Part shown: positions 34,499 through 58,907 of the stretch, in pieces
Layout of the letters: every line of letters starts with the position of its first letter
Position numbering within the stretch: position 1 is the stretch's first letter
The notes under the pieces: model-generated
The model's input: the letters and a program-made list of their open reading frames with translations, nothing else
Database searches by the model: none
What the model was told of the DNA's origin: nothing
Translations under genes and position numbers: made by a program
Source of the DNA: an uncultured Rhodobacteraceae bacterium
GTDB taxonomy: Bacteria > Pseudomonadota > Alphaproteobacteria > Rhodobacterales > Rhodobacteraceae
Assembly: GCA_947500005.1 (NCBI GenBank)
Contig: CANMQJ010000004.1
Span: 3,399 to 67,398 of the forward strand
Length of the DNA: 64,000 nucleotides
Reading direction: 5' to 3'

Positions 34499-34535
34499 TT
34501 TGCAATTATACTCTACACCTGACAGATTTTGCAAA
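34499..34535. promoter_or_regulatory. TTTGCAAT / TTTGCAAA pair directly upstream of pccR
   Basis: TTTGCAAT at 34499-34506 and TTTGCAAA at 34528-34535; pccR ATG at 34545. Confidence 0.4.
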
Positions 34536-34544
34536 GATGCGCCC

Positions 34545-35945
34545 ATGCCCACCCAGAAACTCTATGCCGGCGCCAAGCTGCGCGAGATCCGCACGCGTCT
34601 TGCCCTGACGCAAAAGGAATTCTCCGCCAAGCTCGGCGTCTCCCTGCCCTATCTGAACCAGATGGAGAACAACAACCGGCCCGTCTCGACAACGGTTGTC
34701 CTTGCGCTGGCACAGGAGTTCGGGCTGGACGTCACCGAGCTCAGTACAGGCGACAGCGAGCGGCTGGTCTCCGACATGCGCGAGGCACTGGCCGACCCGA
34801 TCTTTGCCGACGCCGTCCCGCCGTTGGCCGACCTGCGCCTGACCGCGTCGAACGCCCCGGCCCTGGCCCGTTCTTTCATCGAGTTGCACAAGGCCTATCG
34901 CCAGACGCATGAACGGCTCGCCTCCCTCGATGAGGCCTTGGGTCGCGAGGATGCCCGCATTCAGGCCAGCCCCTGGGAGGAGGTGCGCGACTTCTTCCAC
35001 TATTGCGACAACTATATCGACGCGATGGATCGCGCGGCCGAGCATTTCGCCTCGCGCGCCAAGGGACCCGAGGGCATTCGCGCGGCCGCCCTCGCCGCGT
35101 TCGCAACACAGGACATCACCGTCACTTATGCCGACCAGCACGCGCTGCGCATCTTCGATCCGGACCAGCGCACGCTGACCCTGTCGACCCGGTCCTCGCC
35201 GCAGACCCAGCTTTTCCAGATGCTTCTGCAAATGACCCTGACGACGCAGAACAAGCTGCTGGAGGCGACGCTGGATTTCGCCCGTTTCCAGAGCGAAGAG
35301 GCGCGCGCCATCGCCAAGATCGGGCTGGCCAACTACTTCGCCGGGGCCGCGCTGATGCCCTATGGCGCGTTCCTGTCGGCGGCACAGGAAACCCGGCACG
35401 ATCTGGAATTGCTGGGCGCGCGCTTCGGCGCCTCGATCGAACAGGTCGCGCACCGGCTGTCCACGCTGCAACGTCCCGGCGCCAAGGGCATCCCCTTCTT
35501 CTTCGTCCGGGTCGACCAGGCCGGCACCATCACCAAGCGCCATTCCGCCACGCGCCTGCAATTCGCCCGCTTCGGCGGCGCCTGCCCTCTCTGGAACGTG
35601 CATCGCGCCTTCGAGACGCCGGGTCATTTCCTGCGCCAGCTGGCCGAGACCCCGGACGGTGTGCGCTATATCAGCCTCGCGCGCGACGTCTCCAAGATGG
35701 GCGGCTCCTTCGGCGCGCCGGTGCGCCGCTATGCCATCGCTCTGGGTTGCGAGACGCGCCATGCCGACGCCCTGGTCTATGCGGACGGGCTCGATATCGG
35801 CAATGCCGCCGCCTATGAGCCGATCGGCATCTCCTGCCGCATCTGCGAGCGCACCAATTGCCACCAACGCTCGGTCCCGCCGCTGGAACGCCGCCTGACC
35901 ATCGACACCAACCGGCGCGGCACCCTGCCCTACGAGGTCAGCTAG
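34545..35945 (+). CDS. pccR: short-chain fatty acyl-CoA regulator family transcription factor (XRE HTH plus ImmA/IrrE-like domain), PccR-like
   Basis: N-terminal XRE HTH (KLREIRTRLALTQKEFSAKLGVSLPYLNQMENNNRPVS); long C-terminal domain with a Cys cluster (CPLWN, CRICERTNC); next to pccB. Confidence 0.8.
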   Translation: MPTQKLYAGAKLREIRTRLALTQKEFSAKLGVSLPYLNQMENNNRPVSTTVVLALAQEFGLDVTELSTGDSERLVSDMREALADPIFADAVPPLADLRLTASNAPALARSFIELHKAYRQTHERLASLDEALGREDARIQASPWEEVRDFFHYCDNYIDAMDRAAEHFASRAKGPEGIRAAALAAFATQDITVTYADQHALRIFDPDQRTLTLSTRSSPQTQLFQMLLQMTLTTQNKLLEATLDFARFQSEEARAIAKIGLANYFAGAALMPYGAFLSAAQETRHDLELLGARFGASIEQVAHRLSTLQRPGAKGIPFFFVRVDQAGTITKRHSATRLQFARFGGACPLWNVHRAFETPGHFLRQLAETPDGVRYISLARDVSKMGGSFGAPVRRYAIALGCETRHADALVYADGLDIGNAAAYEPIGISCRICERTNCHQRSVPPLERRLTIDTNRRGTLPYEVS

Positions 35946-36089
35946 CCTCGCCGCCTTCGCCACCGGGCGCGGATCTGCTATCGTCCGTTTCCACAAACCC
36001 CTGCGGCGAACATGCGATACGCCACGGGTTTCACCGCAGCCAAACCTGGTTTAGGGCTAAACTACATCTTCGGGAGAGAGTACCACACC

Positions 36090-38363
<2,274 letters not shown>

Positions 38364-40774: not shown

Positions 40775-40852
40775 CCGCACGGCGCATTTTCCCTAGCGTC
40801 ACCCTTGCCATCGCTCCCGCCGCGGATACGCTGCCGGCGGGAGATTTTATTC

Positions 40853-42283
40853 ATGACAGACAAAGATATCTGGCGCCTCGACGCGCATGAGATCGCCGGC
40901 CAGACACGGTCGGGCGACCTGACGGCAGAAGCAGCGGTGACCGCCGCCATCACCCGGATGGAGGCGGTGAACCCCGACCTCAACGCCGTAGTACAAAGCT
41001 GTGCCGAACAGGCGCTGGAGCGCGCCCGCGGCCTCGACAAGGCGCGCGCGGAGGGGGCCGAACCGGGTCCGCTTTTCGGCGTGCCCGTCACCATCAAGGT
41101 CAATGTCGACCAGGAGGGATACGCCACGACGAACGGCGTGCCCGCGCTCAAGGACCTGATCGCACCGGCCGATGCTCCGGTCGTTGCCAACCTGCAAAAG
41201 GCGGGCGCCATCGTGATCGGGCGGACCAACACGCCCGAATTCTCCTTCCGCGCGGATACCGACAACCCGCTGCACGGGCGGACGCATAACCCGTGGGGCA
41301 AGCATATCTCGCCCGGCGGTTCCTCGGGCGGCGCAGGCGCCGCGGTGATGGCCGGGATCGGCGCGCTGGCGCATGGCAACGATATCGGTGGTTCCCTGCG
41401 CTTTCCGGCGGCCGCCAACGGCGCGGTGACGGTCAAGCCGGGGCTGGGCCGCGTGCCCGCCTGGAACCCCAGCCAGAAGGCCGAGCGCGGGATGCTTGCG
41501 CAATCCATGTCGGTGCAGGGGCTGCTGACCCGCTCGGCCGCCGATCTGCACGCGGCGATGCCCAGCCTGATCGCGCCCGATCCGCGCGACCCGTTCCACG
41601 TTCCCCTGCCCTGGCGCGGGGAGCCGCTGGCGGGACCGCTGAAGGTGGCCTTCACCCGCAACATGTTCGACTATGACCTCCACCCCGAGGTGGACGCCGC
41701 CCTGACCGCCGCCCGCGACGCGCTGGCCGACGCGGGCTATGACGTTCACGAGGTCGGGCCGCCCGACGTGTTCGAGGCGGGCCGTGTCGGCTATCGCACC
41801 CTGATGGGCGAGGTTCACGCCCTGATGAAGGCCGATATTGACGCTTACGGCTCCGACACGATCCGGACGATCTTCGAGACCTATTTCCAGGAATTCCCGC
41901 CCTACGAGGGCGACGAACTGCTCGCCATGATGGCGAAACGCAGCCATTACGCCCGGCAATGGTCGCTGTTTCTCGAAGTGTATCCCCTGGTCCTGACCCC
42001 GTTCCAGCCCCGCCCCTTCTTCGCACCCGATCGCGACACCGAAGGGGCCGAAGGCGTGGACGAGGTTCTGGGCTGCGCCGTCTATTCCTACGCGTTCAAC
42101 TACATGGGCCTTCCCGCTGCCTGCGTGTCCGCCCGCCTGGCCGACCTGCCGAAGGGGCCGCAGCCGATCCCGGTGCAGATCGTCGCCCGCCGCTGGCGCG
42201 AGGATCTCGCCGTGGATGCCGCCGCCGCGATCGAGGCGCGGGTAGGCCGGATGTGCGACGCGCTCTGGGCGCGGATGGGCTGA
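40853..42283 (+). CDS. amidase-signature family protein
   Basis: Amidase signature GGSSGGAGAAVMAG and a Ser-cisSer-Lys type context. Confidence 0.85.
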   Translation: MTDKDIWRLDAHEIAGQTRSGDLTAEAAVTAAITRMEAVNPDLNAVVQSCAEQALERARGLDKARAEGAEPGPLFGVPVTIKVNVDQEGYATTNGVPALKDLIAPADAPVVANLQKAGAIVIGRTNTPEFSFRADTDNPLHGRTHNPWGKHISPGGSSGGAGAAVMAGIGALAHGNDIGGSLRFPAAANGAVTVKPGLGRVPAWNPSQKAERGMLAQSMSVQGLLTRSAADLHAAMPSLIAPDPRDPFHVPLPWRGEPLAGPLKVAFTRNMFDYDLHPEVDAALTAARDALADAGYDVHEVGPPDVFEAGRVGYRTLMGEVHALMKADIDAYGSDTIRTIFETYFQEFPPYEGDELLAMMAKRSHYARQWSLFLEVYPLVLTPFQPRPFFAPDRDTEGAEGVDEVLGCAVYSYAFNYMGLPAACVSARLADLPKGPQPIPVQIVARRWREDLAVDAAAAIEARVGRMCDALWARMG

Positions 42284-45432: not shown

Positions 45433-46191
45433 ATGCTGAACACCATCTCCCACGGAACCCCCGGCGACCTGCCGCCCCTGCTGATCGCGCATGGCCTTTA
45501 CGGTTCGGCGCGCAACTGGGGCGTGATCGCCAAGCGCCTGTCCGACAGCCGACAGGTCGTCGCGGTGGACATGCCCAACCACGGCGACAGCGACTGGACC
45601 GCGCCGCATGACTATCCCCACATGGCGCAGGCCCTGGCCGAGGTGATCGAGGATCTGGGCGGCAAGGCCGATGTGCTGGGTCACTCCATGGGCGGAAAGG
45701 CGGCGATGATGCTGGCGCTGACGCAGGGCCACCTGCTGCGCAAGCTGGTGGTGGCCGACATCGCGCCGGTGCCCTACTCGCACACGCAGCAGCAATATAT
45801 CGAGGCGATGAAGGCTGTCGATCTGTCGAAGGTCACCCGCCGCTCGGAGGCCGAGGACCAGCTGGCCGAACATGGTGTCGACCGCTCTTTGCAAAGCTTC
45901 TTCACCCAGTCGCTCGACGTCGCGAATCGCCGCTGGCGGCTCAACCTGGACCAGTTGAGCGCCGACATGGCCGGGATCATCGGCTTTCCCCAGGTGGACG
46001 GCTCATGGGACGGGCCGACCCTGTTCCTGTCGGGCGGCGAGTCGGACTATGTCCGGCCCGAACACCGCCAGACGATCCTGGCGCTCTTTCCCAAGGCGCG
46101 TTTCATGAAGATCCCCGGGGCGGGACACTGGCTACACGCCGAGAAGCCGCGCGAATTCGAGGCGACCGTGCGCGCCTGGCTCGACGCCTGA
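45433..46191 (+). CDS. alpha/beta hydrolase (esterase, YbfF-like)
   Basis: Canonical nucleophile elbow GHSMGG; HG oxyanion motif LIAHGLYGS; C-terminal GHWLHAE. Confidence 0.8.
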   Translation: MLNTISHGTPGDLPPLLIAHGLYGSARNWGVIAKRLSDSRQVVAVDMPNHGDSDWTAPHDYPHMAQALAEVIEDLGGKADVLGHSMGGKAAMMLALTQGHLLRKLVVADIAPVPYSHTQQQYIEAMKAVDLSKVTRRSEAEDQLAEHGVDRSLQSFFTQSLDVANRRWRLNLDQLSADMAGIIGFPQVDGSWDGPTLFLSGGESDYVRPEHRQTILALFPKARFMKIPGAGHWLHAEKPREFEATVRAWLDA

Positions 46192-46467: not shown

Positions 46468-46496
46468 TTGCCCCGCACCGCGCGGCTTTGTATAGA
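46468..46496 (+). promoter_or_regulatory. candidate sigma70-type promoter of the split tRNA-Leu gene
   Basis: TTGCCC-N17-TATAGA, with the -10 ending 9 nt before the tRNA 5' end. Confidence 0.4.
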
Positions 46497-46505
46497 CGGC
46501 CCCGT

Positions 46506-46803
46506 GCGGGCGTGGCGGAATGGTAGACGCATCGGACTTGAACGATTGAGTGCGCCGGTCGGAAACGCCGGTGTAGAACTGCTCAAATTCGGGGAACCCT
46601 GTCAAATGGCGATCCCGAGCCAAGCCCCCGCAAGGGGGAAGGTGTAGAGACTAGACGGGCAGCGCCTAAAGCCGGACTGGCCAGGGCGAAGGGATAGTCC
46701 AGACCACAAACGCGGCCCCGGGCCGCGGCGGCGAAAGCCGTAGCTGGTAAGAAAATCCGTGGGGCGCAAGCCCGTGTGGGTTCGAGTCCCACCGCCCGCA
46801 CCA
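46506..46803 (+). tRNA. tRNA-Leu(UAA) interrupted by a group I intron (exons 46506-46539 and 46752-46803)
   Basis: The joined exons give an 86-nt class II tRNA: acceptor GCGGGCG/CGCCCGC, D-arm GGCGGAAUGGUAGACGC, anticodon loop CU-UAA-AA, long variable arm GGGGCGCAAGCCCGU, T-arm GUGGG-UUCGAGU-CCCAC, encoded CCA. Confidence 0.85.
46540..46751 (+). ncRNA. group I intron, IC3-like, 212 nt, no internal ORF
   Basis: Inserted between U34 and A35; guide GAUUGAG pairs with exon CUU (U.G at the splice site); core strings UCAAAUUCGGGGAACC, CCGAGCCAAGC, GAAGGUGUAGAGACUAGACGG, CCUAAAGCC; terminal G at 46751. Confidence 0.85.
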
Positions 46804-46902: not shown

Positions 46903-47571
46903 TCATTGAGCCAAGGCCCGGGCGCGCTCGGCACTCCAGGCCCGCGCGCCGGCATGGACCGCGTCATAGACCGCGCGCCCGATGGCCTCTCCGCACTCCG
47001 TGTGCAGCCCGGAGAACCCGATATCACCGGCATGTGCCGCGACGGCGACGCAATCGGTCCCGGTGCCCGTGGCGATACCCGTCGGCAGGACGAACCCCGC
47101 ATCCATCACCGCCGCCGTGCGCGCCTGCACCGCGATGCTCATCGCCTCCAGCAGGCCCGCCCCGGTCAGACCGGTATCCAGCCGCACAGCCACGTTGATC
47201 GTGCCCCAGCCCCCGTCCCAGTCGCGGCCCGAGTAATCGGCCCGCGCGCCCACCCTTTCGCCATTCGACAGGCCAACCGTCGCCACGGCATGGGCCTCCA
47301 CCGCACCGACCCGCGCGCGGCGCTCCTCGTAGGTGGTGACGTCGCGCGAGGTGAGGAACAGAACCGCTTCCTCGTTCTGCCGGGCGCGCAGGGCCGAGTC
47401 CGCCCAGCCGACCACGTCCAGATCGGGCGGCAGGTCGGCATTGCGCAGTTCGCGCCACAGGATCTGCCGCGCACGGACCTGTCCGGGCCGGTTGATCGAC
47501 CAGCTCAACACCTCCATCTCCGCGCCCAGATCGAATGTCAGCCAGGGCGCGTCCAGAACGACCCGGCTCAA
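46903..47571 (-). CDS. cbiZ: adenosylcobinamide amidohydrolase CbiZ
   Basis: WSINRPG..., TINVAVRLDTGL, ATGTGTDCVAV motifs typical of CbiZ; probable TTG start overlapping the ATPase stop (TTGA); no in-frame ATG downstream of the upstream gene. Confidence 0.7.
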   Translation of the reverse strand: MSRVVLDAPWLTFDLGAEMEVLSWSINRPGQVRARQILWRELRNADLPPDLDVVGWADSALRARQNEEAVLFLTSRDVTTYEERRARVGAVEAHAVATVGLSNGERVGARADYSGRDWDGGWGTINVAVRLDTGLTGAGLLEAMSIAVQARTAAVMDAGFVLPTGIATGTGTDCVAVAAHAGDIGFSGLHTECGEAIGRAVYDAVHAGARAWSAERARALAQ

Positions 47572-48326
47572 TCCACCACCTCCAGCGGCTGAAAGACCGG
47601 GCCATGCGGCGTGTCCTGGTGCCAGACCGACACGCCGAAGGCGCGCGCCATCCGCTCGGGCGAGAGAACCTCGGCCGGGGTCCCGTCGGCCATGACCCCG
47701 CCCTCGGCCAGAAGGATCAGCCGCGTGCAATGCCGCGCGGCCAGCCCCAGGTCGTGCAGAGAGACGATCACCGCGCGACCCTCGCGGGCCAGGTCGCGAA
47801 AGATCCGCATGGCCGAGATCTGATGCGCCGGGTCCAGCCCCGCGATGGGCTCGTCCGCCATCAGCAGCGGCGTGTCCTGCGCCAGCGCCCGCGCGATCAG
47901 CGCGCGCGCCTGCTCGCCCCCCGACAGGCGCGAGGCCGCACGGTGGCGCAGGCCCTGAAGGTCCAGCCGGTCCAGCGCGCTTTCGACATGCGCGCGATCC
48001 TGGTCCGGCAGGCCGCCGCGCAGGGGCAGATACGGCAGCCGCCCCAGCGCCACCACCCGTTCCACCGGCACCGGCCAGGCGATCTCGCGCGCCTGCGGCA
48101 TCCAGGCCACCGCCCTGGCCCGCTCCGCCGGCGACAGCGTGGCAAGCGAGCTTGTCCCGTCGCAGGGGATCAGCCCCAGCGCCGCCCGCATGAGCGAGGT
48201 CTTGCCCGCCCCGTTCGGGCCGATCAGCCCCACCATCTCTCCCGGCCCGACCGAGAAGGTGACATCCGAGAACACCGTCCTGCCCCGCAGCGTGACACCC
48301 AGATCCGACAGCGACAGCGCGCTCAT
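47568..48326 (-). CDS. btuD: ABC transporter ATP-binding protein, BtuD/FecE-like
   Basis: MSALSLSDLGV...; Walker A GPNGAGKTS, LSGGEQARALIARAL, LLMADEPIAGLD; ATGA overlap with the permease. Confidence 0.8.
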   Translation of the reverse strand: MSALSLSDLGVTLRGRTVFSDVTFSVGPGEMVGLIGPNGAGKTSLMRAALGLIPCDGTSSLATLSPAERARAVAWMPQAREIAWPVPVERVVALGRLPYLPLRGGLPDQDRAHVESALDRLDLQGLRHRAASRLSGGEQARALIARALAQDTPLLMADEPIAGLDPAHQISAMRIFRDLAREGRAVIVSLHDLGLAARHCTRLILLAEGGVMADGTPAEVLSPERMARAFGVSVWHQDTPHGPVFQPLEVVD

Positions 48327-49306
48327 CCCAGCTCCCTCCGCGTCTTGTAGATCAGGTGCAGGAACAGCGGTGCGCCGACCAGTGCCGTCACCACGCCCAG
48401 CTTCAGGTCGCGTTCGGGCAGGATCACCCGCACCGCGATATCGGCCAGTTGCAGCATCAGCGCGCCCCCCAGAGCCGAGCTCCACAGCAGCCGCGCGGGA
48501 TCGCCGCCCACCAGCGGACGCAGGATATGCGGCACCACCAGCCCCACGAACCCGATCGCGCCCGCCACGGCCGTGCCGCCCCCCACGATGGCCGCCGTGC
48601 CCAGCACCAGGACGATCCGCAGCCGGGACAGGCTGATGCCCATCGTCTCGGCCGCGTCCTCGCCCAGGGTCAGCGCGCTCAGCCCCCGCGCGGTCCAGGC
48701 CAGCAGCACCGCCCCCACCAGCACGAAGGGCAGTGCCAGCCACAGGTGCAGCATCGACCGGTCGGCCAGCGATCCCATCATCCAGAACACGATCTCGCTC
48801 GCCGCGAAGGGGTTGGGCGACAGGTTCAGCACCAATGAGGTCAAGGCCCCTGCCAGCGCCGAGATGGCAATCCCGGCCAGGATCAGCGTCAGCGACCCGC
48901 CGCGCGGCCCCGCGAGCAGCATGATCAGCCCCACCCCCGCCAGCGCCCCGGCCAGAGCCGAGAAGGGCAGCGCCAGCGCGCTGCTCGCCGCAAGTCCCGT
49001 ATGGATCGCCACCACGGCGCCCAGCGCGGCCGACCCCGACACGCCGATCAGCCCCGGCTCGGCCAGCGGATTGCGCAGGTATCCCTGCATCGCCGCCCCA
49101 GCCATGCCCAGCCCCGCCCCGATCGCGATGGCCAGCAAGGCACGCGGCAACCGGATCTCCCGCATCACCAGCGTCATCGGGCCATACTCGTCCGAGAACA
49201 GCGCCGCCAGGCTCTCCCCCGGCGGGACATCCGCCGGACCGATGACCAGCGACAGGACGAAAAGCGCCAGAACGCCAAGCAGCAGGAGGGGCTCCAGCGC
49301 CCTCAT
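48323..49306 (-). CDS. btuC: FecCD-family permease, BtuC-like
   Basis: 327 aa, about 9-10 TM helices, FecCD family pattern; ATGA overlaps at both ends. Confidence 0.8.
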   Translation of the reverse strand: MRALEPLLLLGVLALFVLSLVIGPADVPPGESLAALFSDEYGPMTLVMREIRLPRALLAIAIGAGLGMAGAAMQGYLRNPLAEPGLIGVSGSAALGAVVAIHTGLAASSALALPFSALAGALAGVGLIMLLAGPRGGSLTLILAGIAISALAGALTSLVLNLSPNPFAASEIVFWMMGSLADRSMLHLWLALPFVLVGAVLLAWTARGLSALTLGEDAAETMGISLSRLRIVLVLGTAAIVGGGTAVAGAIGFVGLVVPHILRPLVGGDPARLLWSSALGGALMLQLADIAVRVILPERDLKLGVVTALVGAPLFLHLIYKTRRELG

Positions 49307-50127
49307 CGCGCCAGCCCGCCCCGCGCCTCGGCCAGTGTCTCGATGGCGCGCAGCACATAGGGCGTGCCACAGACCCAGTCCCTGTCCGACATCACCGCCT
49401 GCCCCGAGCGGGCGCGCAGTTGCGCGATGACCGGGTGATCCATCGTCTCCTTGGCCCGTCCATGCCCCGGCGACGGGCGCGCCGTGATCACCACGTCCGG
49501 ATCGACCAACGCCAGCCGCTCCAGCGGCAGCACCCCGCCCCAGTCATAGCCCAACTCGGCCGCCACGTTGCGATAGCCTGCCGCCTTCAGGATCTGGCCC
49601 GCGAGGCTCTGCTCACCCTCGGTCCAGCCGCGCAGCGCATAGATCGCGGCGCGCGGCCCCTTCTCGTCGGTCAAGCGCAGCGCCGCCAGCCCCGCGTCAT
49701 AGCGCGCGACCAGTGCGCGGGCCGCGTCCTGACGGCCCAGAACCACGCCCATCCGCAGGATGTTCTCGCGCACTGCCTCCAGCGAGCGGGCAGGCTCGAA
49801 AACCTCGACCGGCACCTCCAGCCGGCGCATCATCGCCACCGTGGCCCGCGCCGAGAAGGATCCCGCGACCACCAGGTCCGGCCGCTGCAGATAGATCTCC
49901 TCGGCCAGCCCGTGATTGATGGCGAAGCCGCGCGCCTCTTCCGACATGGCCGAGGCGCGCGGATCGCGGGCCAGATGCGTGACAGAGTGAAGCTGGCCGG
50001 GTGCGGCCAGCAACATCGCCAGCTGATCGGTGCAGAGGTTCATCGACACCACCCTCTGTGGCTGCGCCTGCACAAGACAGGCCCAGCCCAGCGTCAGGCA
50101 AACCGCGATGGCCCCCGCGCCCCGCAT
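49303..50127 (-). CDS. btuF: periplasmic binding protein, BtuF/FecB-like
   Basis: Signal peptide MRGAGAIAVCLTLGWACLVQA; class III (cluster A) PBP pattern RVVSMNLCTDQL. Confidence 0.75.
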   Translation of the reverse strand: MRGAGAIAVCLTLGWACLVQAQPQRVVSMNLCTDQLAMLLAAPGQLHSVTHLARDPRASAMSEEARGFAINHGLAEEIYLQRPDLVVAGSFSARATVAMMRRLEVPVEVFEPARSLEAVRENILRMGVVLGRQDAARALVARYDAGLAALRLTDEKGPRAAIYALRGWTEGEQSLAGQILKAAGYRNVAAELGYDWGGVLPLERLALVDPDVVITARPSPGHGRAKETMDHPVIAQLRARSGQAVMSDRDWVCGTPYVLRAIETLAEARGGLAR

Positions 50128-51995
50128 CAGAAGGAGGCCTGCAACCCGACATAGGCCGTGCGGCCGCGCTTGGCATAGCCCCAGACGTCGGAATACTCCT
50201 CGTCGAACAGGTTCACCACCCGCCCCGTCAGGTCCACGTTGTCGGTCAAGGCATAACGCGCGCTCAGATCCACGGTCACGTAATCGGGCAGCTTCTCGGT
50301 CGCGAAGGTCCCGAAGAACTGCGTGTCGTAATTGTCCGCGACATAGCGGATATCGGCCGCCAACAGCCCGCGCCCGCCCATGATCTCCTGCTTGGCGCTC
50401 AGCAGCAGCTCGTGCCGGGGACGGCGCACCTCGACCGACCCGTTCGGGTTCTCGGCATCGACATAGGTATAGCTCAGCCGCAGGTCGAGCGTATCCGTCG
50501 CCGCCAGCTCGCCCGACAGCTCGACACCGCGCCGCGTACTGTCGCCCGCCTGGTTGATATAGGTCGAGGTGCTGGTCACCGGGTCGAACACATCGGTGAT
50601 CTCATCCGTCAGCGTGTCGTGGAACAGCGTCACATCCACCAGGCCGCGCCCCTGTAGGATCGGCATCTCCAGCCCCAGGTCAAAGGAGCGGTTCTTCTCC
50701 GGGCGCAGGTTGGGGTTGCCGACATAGCCGAAGGCGTTGGCGAACAGCTCGAAATAGGTCGGGTTCACAACGCCGGTCCCCGCCGAACCATGTACCCGCA
50801 TCCCGTTGGCGAACAGGTAGGAGCCCGCAAGCGTCCAGGTCACCTCGTCCTCGAAGGTCTCGTTGTCGTCATAGCGCGCACCGGCCTGGATGTTCAGCCC
50901 GTTGGCCAGCCGCCCGCGATATTCCATCGCGACCGAGCGCGACTCGCGTCGATAGCTCGGATTCGTGGTGCTGGAATCGCGCTCCCATTCCAGGATGGTG
51001 TTGAGCAGGTGATCGCTGTCGCGCGCCTGCGCCCCGTCCAGACCATAGCTCAGCAGATAACGCGCGCGCTCCCGGTCGGCCTCGGTCGGCGCCCCGCCAT
51101 TGGTCGAGCTCTCGTAATCCGTCCGGTCATAGCTCAGCCGATGCAACATACGGCCGTCAAGCGCCTCGTATTCGCCGTAGACCTCCCAGATCCGCTCGTC
51201 GCGATCGGCGAACTGGGTGGGATCGTCGACGATGTAGCCCTGCGGCGTGGTCGCGGTGAAGTCGGTGTTGTCAAAGGCATAATCCTCCTCCGACTGGCGG
51301 AACATGAAGCCCAGCTTCAGCCGGTCGGTCAGCTTGTAATCGCCGCTCAGCTGCACGCTGTCGCGTTCCACGCTATCATCCTCGCCGCCGCTGCCCGAGT
51401 AATCATAGCCGTCATCGTCCAGCCGCGCGAGGTTCAGCGCGATGCCGCCCCGCTCGGTCCGGAAGGAATAGCGCGCCGAGGCCGCGTACCCGTCGCCGAC
51501 CTCAATCCGGCCGCCGAACTCCTGCCCCAGCCCGCCGGTCCTGGTGATGATGTTGATCACACCGGACGAGGCGTTCGACCCGTAGAACACCGATTGCGGT
51601 CCGCGCAGCACCTCGATCCGCTCGATATTGGCGGCCTGCAACCCCGACAGGTTGTAATCGCCATCGCCCGCCGAGGCCGGAACCCCGTCGATCAGGATCA
51701 GCGTGTGATTGGCCTCGCCGCCGCGAATGCGCACCGCGGTGAACGAATCGCCCGCCCCGCTCACCGATACGCCGGGCAGCCCGCGCAGCGCGTCCTGAAC
51801 GGTGACGATGCCGCGCGCCTCGATCTCCTCGCCGGTCAGAACGCTGACCGCGCGACCGTACTCTGCCTCCTCGATCGGCGTGAACCCGCCCGACACGACG
51901 ACGGTGCCAAGGTCCAGCGCCTCCTGCGCGAAGGCCGAGGTAGTAAGCATCAGGGCTGCCGTTACGGAAGCCGCTCGGAACGTGTATCTTGTCAT
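50127..51995 (-). CDS. btuB: TonB-dependent outer-membrane receptor, BtuB-like
   Basis: Start at MTRYTFRAASVTAALMLTTSAFAQE; TonB box DLGTVVVSG; plug domain then barrel; terminal ...YVGLQASF; preceded by a cobalamin riboswitch. Confidence 0.85.
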   Translation of the reverse strand: MTRYTFRAASVTAALMLTTSAFAQEALDLGTVVVSGGFTPIEEAEYGRAVSVLTGEEIEARGIVTVQDALRGLPGVSVSGAGDSFTAVRIRGGEANHTLILIDGVPASAGDGDYNLSGLQAANIERIEVLRGPQSVFYGSNASSGVINIITRTGGLGQEFGGRIEVGDGYAASARYSFRTERGGIALNLARLDDDGYDYSGSGGEDDSVERDSVQLSGDYKLTDRLKLGFMFRQSEEDYAFDNTDFTATTPQGYIVDDPTQFADRDERIWEVYGEYEALDGRMLHRLSYDRTDYESSTNGGAPTEADRERARYLLSYGLDGAQARDSDHLLNTILEWERDSSTTNPSYRRESRSVAMEYRGRLANGLNIQAGARYDDNETFEDEVTWTLAGSYLFANGMRVHGSAGTGVVNPTYFELFANAFGYVGNPNLRPEKNRSFDLGLEMPILQGRGLVDVTLFHDTLTDEITDVFDPVTSTSTYINQAGDSTRRGVELSGELAATDTLDLRLSYTYVDAENPNGSVEVRRPRHELLLSAKQEIMGGRGLLAADIRYVADNYDTQFFGTFATEKLPDYVTVDLSARYALTDNVDLTGRVVNLFDEEYSDVWGYAKRGRTAYVGLQASF

Positions 51996-52139
51996 ATCCT
52001 GTCCCCTGACACCCTCGCCCGTGGCGAAGGTCAAAGCACGCCCGGAACGAACCCGGGCAAGTTAGGTCCTTGGAGGATCAGGCCCCCGCAGACGGTGAAA
52101 GCGTCACCACTACGGAAGGACCGTTGACCGCGACGCGCC

Positions 52140-52335
52140 CCGCGTGCGGACAGGGTGATCGTTCTGGCAGGTCTCCTGACTTGCGGGTCACAGCCTTGTC
52201 GGGCCTTCCCATCCGTGACCGGACAGTGGCATGTTCCGACAATGCTCGCCGCTTACAGTTGCGGGGGCAGTCGAGGATTTGGCGCCGTCGGTTTCCCCTG
52301 GGCCGCACCTCGTTCCCTATTATCCGGATGGCATC
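52140..52335 (-). promoter_or_regulatory. cobalamin (B12) riboswitch in the btuB leader
   Basis: The minus strand reads AAUAGGGAACGAGGUG...AAAUCCUCGACUGCCCCCGCAACUGUAAGCGG...GCCACUGUCC...GGGAAGGCC...CAAGUCAGGAGACCUGCCAG (B12 box). Confidence 0.85.
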
Positions 52336-52417
52336 CCACCCGGACCAGAACATCCCGGCAATCGCAGATCGGCGGCGGGCTTGTCAATCGTGAAGTTCGG
52401 CCTAAGCGGCGTCGCCC

Positions 52418-55520: not shown

Positions 55521-55607
55521 TGGTGCGGTCGAGAAGACTCGAACTTCCACGGGTGTTACCCCACAGCGACCTCAACGCTGCGCGTCTACCAATTCCGCCA
55601 CGACCGC
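55521..55607 (-). tRNA. tRNA-Leu(GAG)
   Basis: The minus strand reads GCGGUCGUGGCGGAAUUGGUAGACGCGCAGCGUUGAGGUCGCUGUGGGGUAACACCCGUGGAAGUUCGAGUCUUCUCGACCGCACCA; anticodon loop UU-GAG-GU; long variable arm. Confidence 0.9.
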
Positions 55608-57164: not shown

Positions 57165-58907
57165 TCACGGGCGCACGGCCATCTCCGCGATCGCGTCGAG
57201 CACATAATGCGGCTCTTCGTAGAGCAGGAATTGTCCGGCCTCGGGGCGCAGACGAAAGCTGACATGGGAATGGACGGCCGCGAAAGCTTCGGTCGCGCTT
57301 GCCGACAGGACGGGATCGTGCGCACCATGCAGGTGGACCACGGGCGCACCGCCGCTGCCGATGAGCGGTGTCCAGTTGCGCACCATCAGATGCCCGTCCG
57401 AAACGAAACCGCCAGCCCCCGACTGCACCGCAAAGCGATAGCCCGCATGCATCAACTCCTCGACCCCGAGCCGGGCGATGACAGTGCGTTCATGGCTTCC
57501 GGGGCGATAGAGCGAATCCATCAGCTTGCCGATCTGGTCGCTGTCGATCAGCGCCATCCCCGCCCGCACGAAAAACGGCAGAAGCGCAGGGGTGTAGCGC
57601 GCGGTGTAGGACATCACGCGCTGACGCGGCGCCATCTGAGAGATCTGCTTCATCCGCAGGATAGGGCCGCCGCCCGACACGGCCACCATCCCAGCAACCC
57701 CGTCCCTTAACCGGTTGCACAGAACATGCCCGAACAGCGCGCCTGCCATGTGACCCAGGATCACCGGCCGGTCCAGCCCCTCACGCTCGATCAACTCGCC
57801 GACATGCGCGGCGACCGCGTCGATCGCCGCTTCGGGCGAGGCCACGCCGGGCGAGAGGCCATATCCCGGTCGCACCGGCGCCAGAACCCGCATCCCGCGC
57901 CTGCGAAACCGGTCCTGCAGGAATTGCAAAGGCGCCATCCCGTCAAGCATCCCGTGCAGGTAGATCACCGGCCGGCCACCGGGATCGCCGCAGCGAAACA
58001 GCTGCATGTCAAGCCCGCTGCGCATGCGCCATATCTCCGAGGGCAGCGCCACCATGCCGGGATGCCCCGCCCGCGTCCTTGCCTCGGTATCGACAAGGTA
58101 GGCGACGAGGCGGATCAGTTCGACCTGGCCCGGCGCACCGGTCTTGGCCAGAACGGATTTCGCCTGGTTCCGCACCGTGTGCTCGGACCGGCCCGAGCTG
58201 TCGGCGATGTCCCGAAGGCTCTGCCCCGTCATCAACTTGCGCACCACCTCGACTTCCGCGCGCGACAGACCGAAGGAAGTGACCAGCATCTGCTCGGCCT
58301 CCCGGGTCCATTGGTAGTCGAGACCTTCGATCATCACCTGAACCGGGGCGCCCTCGTCAAAGGCGATGCGCGCGATCAGATGACGAGGCCGAATGTCGGT
58401 GGTCAGGACCAGCGGATTGGCCGACTTGTCCCCTGCGCGGGCCGCTTTGAGCAGAGCCTCCAGCATCCGGGCCCCGTGCCCGACCAGATGGGCCGTCAAG
58501 TCCTCGAGCGCGGCCCGCTCTCCCAACAGATCGCGCGCCGCCGAACCTGCGGCCAGGATACGCCCCTCGGGCGAGGCCAGGATGGCGAAGCCCTGCGTCC
58601 GCGCCACGCGACTGCGCAGTTCCGACCTCGGCAACTTGCGACCGATCTGTTCGAGGATGTCATGGGCCCGCGCGAAATGGGCCTGAAGCTCGGGGTCGAT
58701 CTCCATCCCGCCCTGAACGTCGCGCGCGTCGAGGCTGGCCGCGACCGAAGGGTCGCTCAGGATTGCGCCTATATGGTCCTCCCAGGCTTCCATGAACATT
58801 TCATAGAGTTCCGGGCGCAGGACCGTCTCATATATCGCCGCGACCACCTGGTCACGCGACACGGTCGTCCGATCTGTTGGCGCGTCTCGAATCTCGGCCG
58901 CCTCCAA
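57165..58907 (-). CDS. LuxR/GerE-type HTH regulator fused to a C-terminal alpha/beta-hydrolase-fold domain lacking the nucleophile serine
   Basis: Central HTH (aa ~213-270: LSRAEVEVVRKLMTGQSLRDIADSSGRSEHTVRNQAKSVLAKTG); hydrolase-like domain from aa ~300 with GHMAG (57747-57749 encodes Met) where GxSxG is expected. Confidence 0.7.
   Translation of the reverse strand: MEAAEIRDAPTDRTTVSRDQVVAAIYETVLRPELYEMFMEAWEDHIGAILSDPSVAASLDARDVQGGMEIDPELQAHFARAHDILEQIGRKLPRSELRSRVARTQGFAILASPEGRILAAGSAARDLLGERAALEDLTAHLVGHGARMLEALLKAARAGDKSANPLVLTTDIRPRHLIARIAFDEGAPVQVMIEGLDYQWTREAEQMLVTSFGLSRAEVEVVRKLMTGQSLRDIADSSGRSEHTVRNQAKSVLAKTGAPGQVELIRLVAYLVDTEARTRAGHPGMVALPSEIWRMRSGLDMQLFRCGDPGGRPVIYLHGMLDGMAPLQFLQDRFRRRGMRVLAPVRPGYGLSPGVASPEAAIDAVAAHVGELIEREGLDRPVILGHMAGALFGHVLCNRLRDGVAGMVAVSGGGPILRMKQISQMAPRQRVMSYTARYTPALLPFFVRAGMALIDSDQIGKLMDSLYRPGSHERTVIARLGVEELMHAGYRFAVQSGAGGFVSDGHLMVRNWTPLIGSGGAPVVHLHGAHDPVLSASATEAFAAVHSHVSFRLRPEAGQFLLYEEPHYVLDAIAEMAVRP

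Follow-up and report, generated by a model that had tools for sequence, protein, structure and literature searches.

The 64-kb window analysed here, a continuous stretch of 64,000 nucleotides from an uncultured Rhodobacteraceae bacterium, carries at positions 46506-46803 a tRNA-Leu(UAA) gene which is split in its anticodon loop, between U34 and A35, by an intron of 212 nt. On the strength of sequence comparisons, this is very probably a working chromosomal gene whose ORF-less group I intron, of the IC3 family, is spliced by the two-step mechanism. The same identity had been put forward in the original prediction, whose coordinates and sequence strings for 46506-46803 are all found in the DNA, and it is borne out by Rfam, by ARAGORN, by covariation among homologues and by a covariance model, R1, described below. 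The parts of the gene, numbered by position in the window, are as follows.

46468-46496, + strand: possible promoter, read from the sequence; TTGCCC (46468-46473), 17-nt spacer, TATAGA (46491-46496), ending 9 nt before the tRNA 5' end
46506-46539, + strand: exon 1 of tRNA-Leu(UAA) (ARAGORN, covariation); acceptor 5' strand, D arm, anticodon-stem 5' strand, loop C32 U33 U34
46536-46551, + strand: P1; exon ACUU (46536-46539) with guide GAGU (46548-46551), U46539·G46548 wobble at the 5' splice site
46540-46751, + strand: group I intron, 212 nt, without ORF, between U34 and A35; terminal G (omega G) at 46751
46552-46574, + strand: P2 hairpin with GAAA tetraloop (L2), from MFE fold and coordinates; 8 of 9 pairs compensatory
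46579-46584, + strand: P3 5' strand CUGCUC, pairing with 46657-46662; 99.6% paired, 4 of 6 pairs compensatory
46588-46619, + strand: P4 (46588-46593 with 46614-46619; 95.7% paired) around a very short P5 (46597-46598 with 46608-46609)
46625-46638, + strand: P6 hairpin CCCCC-GCAA-GGGGG; 94.4% paired, 4 of 5 pairs compensatory
46647-46653, + strand: P7 5' strand GAGACUA with one bulged A, pairing with 46695-46700; pseudoknot with P3
46657-46662, + strand: P3 3' strand GGGCAG (covariation)
46663-46688, + strand: P8 with internal motif CCUAAAG...CCAGG; outer helix 84.9%, inner helix 92.6% paired, six compensatory pairs
46695-46700, + strand: P7 3' strand UAGUCC (covariation)
46703-46748, + strand: 3' domain; P9.0 (ACCA 46703-46706 with UGGU 46745-46748), P9 (46712-46726), P9a (46729-46740, GAAA tetraloop)
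46752-46803, + strand: exon 2 of tRNA-Leu(UAA); A35 A36, remaining loop, anticodon-stem 3' strand, variable arm, T arm, acceptor 3' strand, discriminator A, encoded CCA

When 46540-46751 is deleted, as had been proposed as a check, ARAGORN joins exon 1 (34 nt) and exon 2 (52 nt) into an 86-nt tRNA-Leu(UAA) with a 7-bp acceptor stem, a long variable arm and an encoded CCA, in which the canonical 7-nt loop CUUAAAA (CU-UAA-AA) and the isotype match. For a Leu(UAA) tRNA with an intron after position 34, a single combination of U-1 and terminal G yields such a product, and the predicted ligated-exon junction reads GGACUU/AAAAUCCGU (...GGACUU/AAAAUCC...). Across 77 aligned split Leu genes, 99.7% of the cloverleaf cells are paired and compensatory changes occur in 19 of the 23 pairs, including those of the acceptor and anticodon stems, which form only across the intron. 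The start of exon 2, AAAAU, is invariant in all 77 homologues.

The identity of the intervening sequence was addressed with two models of different origin. Rfam Intron_gpI (RF00028), the model named in the original prediction, matches 46530-46714 with 40.2 bits (E 6.7e-9 in a 501-nt search), and the E value of 8.5e-7 over both strands of the whole window lies far beyond chance, though the score stays below the curated gathering score of 50. [quoted passage not shown] For the covariance model R1, 18 introns of tRNA-Arg(CCU/UCU) and tRNA-Ile2(CAU) served as seeds, with the Leu introns and the window left out. On the 64-kb window it gives one match, 46536-46751, over the full model length and ending on G46751, with 175.5 bits and E 3.9e-55, of which a minority (at most about 36 bits) is built in, since the seeds were retrieved with an 18-nt string from the window. 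On three related loci without the intron, R1 found no match. Taken with homology to classes that carry the IC3 label in the intron database to which Williams (2020) refers, these matches support the assignment of 46540-46751 to the group I introns of the bacterial tRNA (IC3) family. The 212 nt contain no ORF of their own, as had been claimed, and the only overlapping ORFs, of 44-81 aa, run across the intron borders; the intron thus offers no homing endonuclease gene and is not mobile by homing.

The fold was mapped by analogy with known tRNA introns, and the resulting helices were then tested on the 77 split Leu genes, aligned by MAFFT with the window first. Over P1, P2, P3, P4, P5, P6, P7, P8, P9.0, P9 and P9a, 87.5% of the cells are paired and 37 of 59 pairs show compensatory changes; none of 500 shuffles came up to this, and when the partners were slid by 1-3 columns, pairing fell to 30-47%. 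The group I core of P3-P4-P6 and P7-P8, together with the P3/P7 pseudoknot, emerges from this covariation among the 77 homologues. In P7, five pairs are invariant (77/77, 100% paired) and the sixth changes from A-U to G-C in 11 of the 77, while the hairpin which had been described as P6-like corresponds to P6 itself. Within the 3' domain, P9.0 is 92.5% paired, P9 83.2% with all six of its pairs compensatory, and P9a 100% with compensatory changes in 4/4. Two helices score lower for reasons of alignment: only 62% of the P2 cells are paired because MAFFT shifts the register where lengths vary, and P5, whose length varies across the family and which therefore aligns poorly, reaches only 47%. In their tertiary contacts, the GAAA tetraloops L2 and L9a, together with the receptor-like P8 motif, would follow the plan of Azoarcus-type introns.

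The DNA has the splice-site features that were predicted: exon CUU can pair with guide GAG, the 5' splice site carries a U·G, and a terminal G occupies 46751. The P1 pairs recur in the homologues as U·G in 77/77, C-G in 77/77, U-A in 76/77 and A-U in 70/77, so that U-1 and the U·G wobble are each kept in all 77 genes, as is the terminal G. A 4-bp P10 between GAUU and AAUC, also part of the original prediction, lacks conservation, as only 28 and 16 of the 77 homologues form its two outer pairs. P10 would comprise at most two U-A pairs, between the two U's beside the guide G and the first A's of exon 2.

The gene belongs to a known and common kind. A scan with the 18-nt core GGTGTAGAGACTRGACGG was run across one genome per bacterial species, and all counts from it refer to the matches listed. 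Reconstruction with ARAGORN assigns 77 of these 121 core matches to tRNA-Leu(UAA) genes with a split after position 34; in a further 12 tRNA-Arg(CCU), two tRNA-Arg(UCU) and five CAU tRNAs the split follows position 36, the remainder being unclassified (the ARAGORN-based classification left 26 of 124 regions unassigned, and the plasmid pCTX-M3, discussed below, was classified by hand). Among the matches listed, the hosts of split tRNA-Leu(UAA) genes include, besides at least ten Rhodobacterales, also Caulobacterales, Sphingomonadales, Bradyrhizobium and Burkholderia, and extend to Betaproteobacteria, Gammaproteobacteria, Acidobacteriota, Eremiobacterota and other phyla. The survey of Williams (2020) mapped 5,292 tRNA genes split by group I introns in 80,413 genomes, placed Leu.3Ug in a set of four classical types, each marked IC3, and recorded a Leu.3Cg variant of 72 members which is confined to Proteobacteria. 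The view that such introns are sporadic in proteobacteria and known there from other tRNAs therefore fails against at least 77 split tRNA-Leu(UAA) genes and an established Leu.3Ug class. With the classes of bacterial tRNA anticodon-loop introns taken as Leu.3Ug, Arg.5Ug, Ile2.5Ug and fMet.2Ug, the window gene shares with Leu.3Ug its host tRNA, its site (CUU/intron/AAAA), the U at -1, the terminal G, the lack of an ORF and the usual length of 200-250 nt. No difference of substance separates it from that class, of which it is a plain member; the copy in this genome has not been individually described.

Comparison with better-known introns places it more closely. The closest non-Leu relatives sampled are the alphaproteobacterial tRNA-Arg(CCU) introns of the Agrobacterium type, with a mean identity of 0.72 over shared core columns; introns of this type were reportedly described by Reinhold-Hurek and Shub in 1992 and by Paquin and colleagues in 1999. 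They share the 3' domain of the window intron, consisting of AGUCCAGACCAC(A/G)AACG, a variable hairpin, GGCGGCGAAAGCCG, UGGUA, one base and the terminal G, as well as the GAAA loop of L2, and it is from such Arg introns that R1, with its 175.5 bits on the window, was mostly built. They differ in their tRNA-Arg host, in insertion after position 36 instead of 34, and in a guide that reads CCU and not CUU. The Azoarcus-type intron of tRNA-Ile2(CAU) has the core strings UCAAAUUCGG, CCGAGCCAAGC and GAAGGUGUAGAGACUAGACGG and the GAAA tetraloops in common with the window, but it has a shorter, dissimilar 3' domain (CCAGGGAG...GAAA...CACAAACCGG) and other P3 and P8 sequences; its core is only about 0.56 identical to that of the window, and it is inserted after position 36.

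The tRNA-Leu(UAA) intron of cyanobacteria and plastids (Anabaena type) occupies the same tRNA and the same U34/A35 site, and the overall plan of its 3' domain is presumably similar to that of the window intron. For comparison we used 91 split tRNA-Leu genes from unlabelled metagenome contigs, which we take to be of the cyanobacterial type from their 69-84% identity to the Anabaena intron. This set also carries the intron at U34/A35, in agreement with the description of that position as the cyanobacterial and plastid insertion site; core identity to the window is about 0.49 (range 0.42-0.60), with the core variant GGUGCAGAGACUCGACGG, and the exons of these genes begin with GGGGG and do not encode the CCA that is encoded in the window. 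The set falls outside a clade of the window, Arg(CCU) and non-cyanobacterial Leu introns in a neighbour-joining tree, a simple distance tree, so that gene and site are shared with the cyanobacterial and plastid introns while the closest relatives are not found among them. The original prediction saw a core likeness to both the Azoarcus tRNA-Ile and the cyanobacterial tRNA-Leu introns; the latter resemblance is weaker than was implied (about 0.49 against 0.72 to Arg(CCU)). Cyanobacterial and non-cyanobacterial Leu introns thus appear as distinct lineages, provisionally, because the set is unlabelled and both samples are biased by their search strings. One may speculate that the Arg(CCU) lineage gave rise to the non-cyanobacterial Leu introns at U34/A35, in an entry separate from that of the cyanobacterial intron. 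Vepritskiy and colleagues are said to have reported, in the Journal of Bacteriology in 2002, a tRNA-Leu(UAA) intron of the subsurface Pseudomonas isolate D0715. Viral contigs scanned for the cyanobacterial-type core yielded two phage introns, neither of them in a tRNA gene.

Orthologous loci were reached via homologues of the neighbouring hydrolase; a tblastn search of the proteins flanking the gene in the window against 120 genome loci detected no shared gene order. In Lutimaribacter marinistellae (locus L123, 4072-4367) the same split gene follows NAD kinase, glyA, a small ORF, the hydrolase and a further small ORF. Its exons are identical to those of the window at 85 of 86 positions and its intron at 188 of 212; where the two introns differ in P2, P6 and P9, the helices remain paired. 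Ruegeria lacuscaerulensis has an uninterrupted tRNA-Leu(UAA) gene nearby on the other strand, whose loop CUUAAAA marks it as an empty site, and Seohaeicola and one further relative have no tRNA at the orthologous position. The intron is therefore common to some, not all, members of the group; the comparison with related Rhodobacteraceae, suggested at the outset, thus finds it present in Lutimaribacter and absent from the Ruegeria gene. Rough neighbour-joining trees of exons and of introns both group the window with Lutimaribacter, Roseovarius and a Rhodobacter MAG, an agreement which fits co-inheritance within a sub-lineage, and the intron appears to have been inherited together with the tRNA gene in the lineage of the window. 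In other clades of these trees, members of different orders, and even of different classes, stand together, a sign that split genes may have been transferred as a whole.

The split gene is probably transcribed from the TTGCCC-N17-TATAGA element listed above, to judge from identical hexamers, equally spaced, ahead of the orthologous gene in Lutimaribacter; a strict sigma-70 scan of the region upstream of the tRNA called no promoter. A terminator scan returned as its sole terminator-like site the P9 hairpin, on the wrong strand. The upstream hydrolase gene (approximately 45436-46191) has a database entry of 100% identity, with Cribrihabitans sp. as cluster mate, and its next named match is Lutimaribacter marinistellae at 81%, which places the window in the roseobacter group of the Rhodobacteraceae. 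An opposite-strand operon, governed by a cobalamin riboswitch (52149-52364), lies downstream of the tRNA gene and ends at a distance of about 100 nt from its 3' end; the operon comprises genes for a TonB-dependent receptor, a periplasmic binding protein, a FecCD permease, an ABC ATPase and CbiZ.

From these features we infer transcription, self-splicing and a role as the UUA decoder of the cell. The gene would be transcribed as a precursor of about 300 nt, in which the intron would fold into the P3-P8 core with its P3/P7 pseudoknot, and P1 would join exon ACUU to the guide GAGU. Free guanosine would then attack after U34, the U of the U·G wobble, and the 3'-OH of exon 1 so released would attack after the terminal G46751, joining the exons into the 86-nt tRNA with its loop CUUAAAA, the ends of which would be trimmed. 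Exon pairing in the anticodon stem is, according to the title of the study, required for splicing of the Anabaena intron (Zaug et al., 1993). In the window gene this stem is intact.

The intron would probably splice itself out, but some plastid tRNA-Leu introns do not self-splice in vitro, and conservation of sequence is therefore no proof of autocatalysis. An intron that is real and no longer an efficient self-splicer, and that depends on a host protein as some organellar tRNA-Leu introns reportedly do, with the tRNA still being made, would be compatible with a P5 and a P10 of about 2 bp each and with a receptor-like P8 motif that departs from the canonical 11-nt motif. We regard this as unlikely, since the core helices, the junction strings, both GAAA tetraloops, the U·G and the terminal G are kept in 77 homologues from several phyla, as expected of an RNA which still relies on its own fold, and the related introns of Azoarcus and Agrobacterium self-splice in vitro. 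That the sequence might not be a group I intron at all, and instead be a chance resemblance or another structured RNA within a tRNA gene, could be argued from the Rfam score below gathering and from the MFE fold of the intron alone, which does not recover the group I core and whose z of only -2.8 was not used as evidence. The R1 score and the pervasive covariation, the P3/P7 pseudoknot included, effectively refute this idea, to which hundreds of homologues with the same splice-site signature are likewise opposed.

A different question is whether the cell depends on this copy. The genome has 66% G+C, and UUA is very rare, with 4 of 16,635 codons in the 40 putative genes of the window; moreover, some related split genes lie on plasmids or beside mobile-element genes. 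Both points would suit a decaying or redundant copy, dispensable because an intact tRNA-Leu(UAA) elsewhere does the decoding. Such a copy is, however, hard to reconcile with the comparison with Lutimaribacter, in which near-identical exons (85/86) accompany an intron that has diverged by 11% with its pairing kept, as expected where purifying selection acts on the tRNA and on the ribozyme fold alike, nor does it sit easily with stems that are all undisrupted, an intact CCA and a conserved gene order. We hold redundancy to be even less probable than dependence on a host protein, and retain the reading of a working gene with a probably self-splicing intron.

A relative of the gene is also found on plasmids, where it accompanies the aac(3)-IId resistance module. 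Searched by blastn against plasmids, the 298 nt of the split gene match 1,279 records, 1,270 of them over the full length, at about 74% identity, mostly from Escherichia, Klebsiella, Salmonella and Acinetobacter. On pCTX-M3 the match lies between a tmrB-like AAA ATPase gene, which adjoins aac(3)-IId, and two small ORFs, a DUF3883 gene and ISCfr1, the whole being bounded by IS26; the same aac(3)-IId/tmrB module occurs in an Acinetobacter gerneri plasmid and an E. coli chromosome, and a homologous split gene, without any annotation at its position, is present in 636 of the 5,426 complete E. coli genomes. The exons of the pCTX-M3 copy join into a tRNA-Leu(UAA) around a 213-nt intron that scores 171.6 bits with R1, and its predicted exon junction is CAGACUU/AAAAUCUGC. 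The nearest environmental relatives of the plasmid copy, at about 89%, are alphaproteobacterial, and none of the environmental loci retrieved has an aac(3) or tmrB homologue beside the split tRNA. Our literature search found no mention of a group I intron or a tRNA beside tmrB/aac(3)-II. A group I ribozyme gene may thus be widespread in clinical Enterobacteriaceae, and the intact-looking plasmid copy could mark the donor of the aac(3)-IId/tmrB resistance module.

For the annotation of this and related genomes, the practical point is that such a gene is easily overlooked. Default ARAGORN on the unspliced window called only a tRNA-Leu(GAG) at 55521-55607, and an Rfam scan of the window at gathering scores returned only this tRNA-Leu(GAG) and the cobalamin riboswitch; the expectation that standard tRNA finders would skip the gene is thus confirmed for default ARAGORN and for the Rfam tRNA model. 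The intron mode of ARAGORN does find it, with the junction two bases off, and mistypes it as tRNA-Phe(GAA). According to the tRNAscan-SE 2.0 paper, that program is not designed for detecting the group I introns of such split tRNA genes. As a consequence of being missed by standard annotation, the genome may be wrongly reported as being without a tRNA-Leu(UAA).

For the biology of the organism, it is conceivable, by analogy and as a distinct long shot, that the rate of splicing sets the supply of tRNA-Leu(UAA) and thereby gates the few genes with UUA codons, like bldA in Streptomyces, if the split gene is the sole decoder; this would amount to a ribozyme-controlled translational switch. For the intron family, the finding that the non-cyanobacterial Leu introns are, in the samples compared, nearer to those of tRNA-Arg(CCU) than to those of cyanobacterial tRNA-Leu bears on the transposition of introns between tRNA genes.

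The group I intron that splits the tRNA-Leu(UAA) gene of the window shares more of its core with the introns of proteobacterial tRNA-Arg(CCU) genes (identity 0.72) than with cyanobacterial-type tRNA-Leu(UAA) introns (0.49). Judged by their sequences, the non-cyanobacterial tRNA-Leu(UAA) introns, including that of the window, are seemingly closer kin to the tRNA-Arg(CCU) introns, whose 3' domain is identical in plan, than to the cyanobacterial-type introns, which occupy the same insertion site yet are more distant in the core. This comparison set genome and metagenome loci (L003-L122 and L132-L251) against the window intron (46540-46751), and involves pattern-biased sampling and a neighbor-joining tree only.

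The split gene of the window is convergent with an operon for the uptake and salvage of B12/cobinamide, headed by a cobalamin riboswitch:

46903-52364, minus strand: operon of TonB-dependent receptor, Peripla_BP_2 binding protein, FecCD permease, ABC ATPase and CbiZ
52149-52364, minus strand: cobalamin riboswitch (137 bits)

The codon UUA is nearly missing from the 40 putative genes of the window: it occurs 4 times in 16,635 codons, of which 1,685 encode leucine. These four codons stand in the following open reading frames:

34500-35945: UUA-containing ORF
36012-38363: UUA-containing ORF
40805-42283: UUA-containing ORF
57165-58907: UUA-containing ORF

At related loci, the neighbors of this tRNA gene appear to include parts of mobile elements. 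Directly 3' of the orthologous split tRNA of Lutimaribacter marinistellae lies what looks like a prophage inserted at the tRNA 3' end, and in Ruegeria (locus L127) a fragment of an integrase arm adjoins the intronless tRNA-Leu(UAA).

L. marinistellae locus L123, 4462-6777: small ORFs, HTH regulator and terminase small-subunit gene

A 213-nt group I intron also interrupts an unannotated tRNA-Leu(UAA) gene, homologous to that of the window, inside the aac(3)-IId resistance module, as at three loci:

L001, 6001-6299 (pCTX-M3, NC_004464.2, 61823-62121): split tRNA-Leu(UAA)
L128, 3001-3300: split tRNA-Leu(UAA)
L129, 3001-3331: split tRNA-Leu(UAA)

The module, with IS26 at its bounds, runs from aac(3)-IId and a tmrB-like ATPase through the split tRNA to two small ORFs, DUF3883 and ISCfr1. 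Full-length module-type split genes occur in 1,270 PLSDB plasmids, and likewise in 636 of the 5,426 complete genomes of E. coli. Its spliced product is a tRNA-Leu(UAA) according to ARAGORN, it scores 171.6 bits against R1, the covariance model built from tRNA-Arg and tRNA-Ile2 introns, and its nearest relatives among the matches listed are alphaproteobacterial sequences (~89%). Our literature search found no paper mentioning a split tRNA or group I intron beside tmrB/aac(3)-II.

A Proteobacteria MAG (L014) harbors two opposite-facing intron copies within a span of ~700 nt, the second of which is 90% identical to the pCTX-M3 type over its first ~170 nt:

L014, 5551-5772, plus strand: intron copy 1
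L014, 6056-6254, minus strand: intron copy 2 (84.7 bits, below copy 1)

Viral sequences also matched. In the uncultured 735-kb phage genomes LR756501.1 and LR756503.1 (~190325-190527), the match to bases 7-206 of the split gene (74%), corresponding to exon 1 and most of the intron, hints at a possible phage-borne split tRNA; the remaining phage matches of this search, including Gordonia phage Daredevil and Pelagibacter phage HTVC120P, cover the intron core only. Two IMG/VR viral contigs (L130 and L131) contain group I intron cores of the GGTGTAGAGACTCGACGG variant, and since no split tRNA is detectable around these cores, their introns presumably reside in protein-coding genes.

One split tRNA-Leu copy is borne by a Bradyrhizobium conjugative plasmid, where it adjoins trb genes. 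In trees of the 77 aligned split tRNA-Leu genes, certain clades combine different orders or classes, one joining the pCTX-M3 copy with Novosphingobium, Bradyrhizobiaceae, Rhodovulum and Paracoccus, and another Hoeflea with Microbulbifer, Carnimonas and Pacificimonas. Because exons and introns move together in these mixed clades, the trees suggest that the whole split gene has been transferred horizontally.
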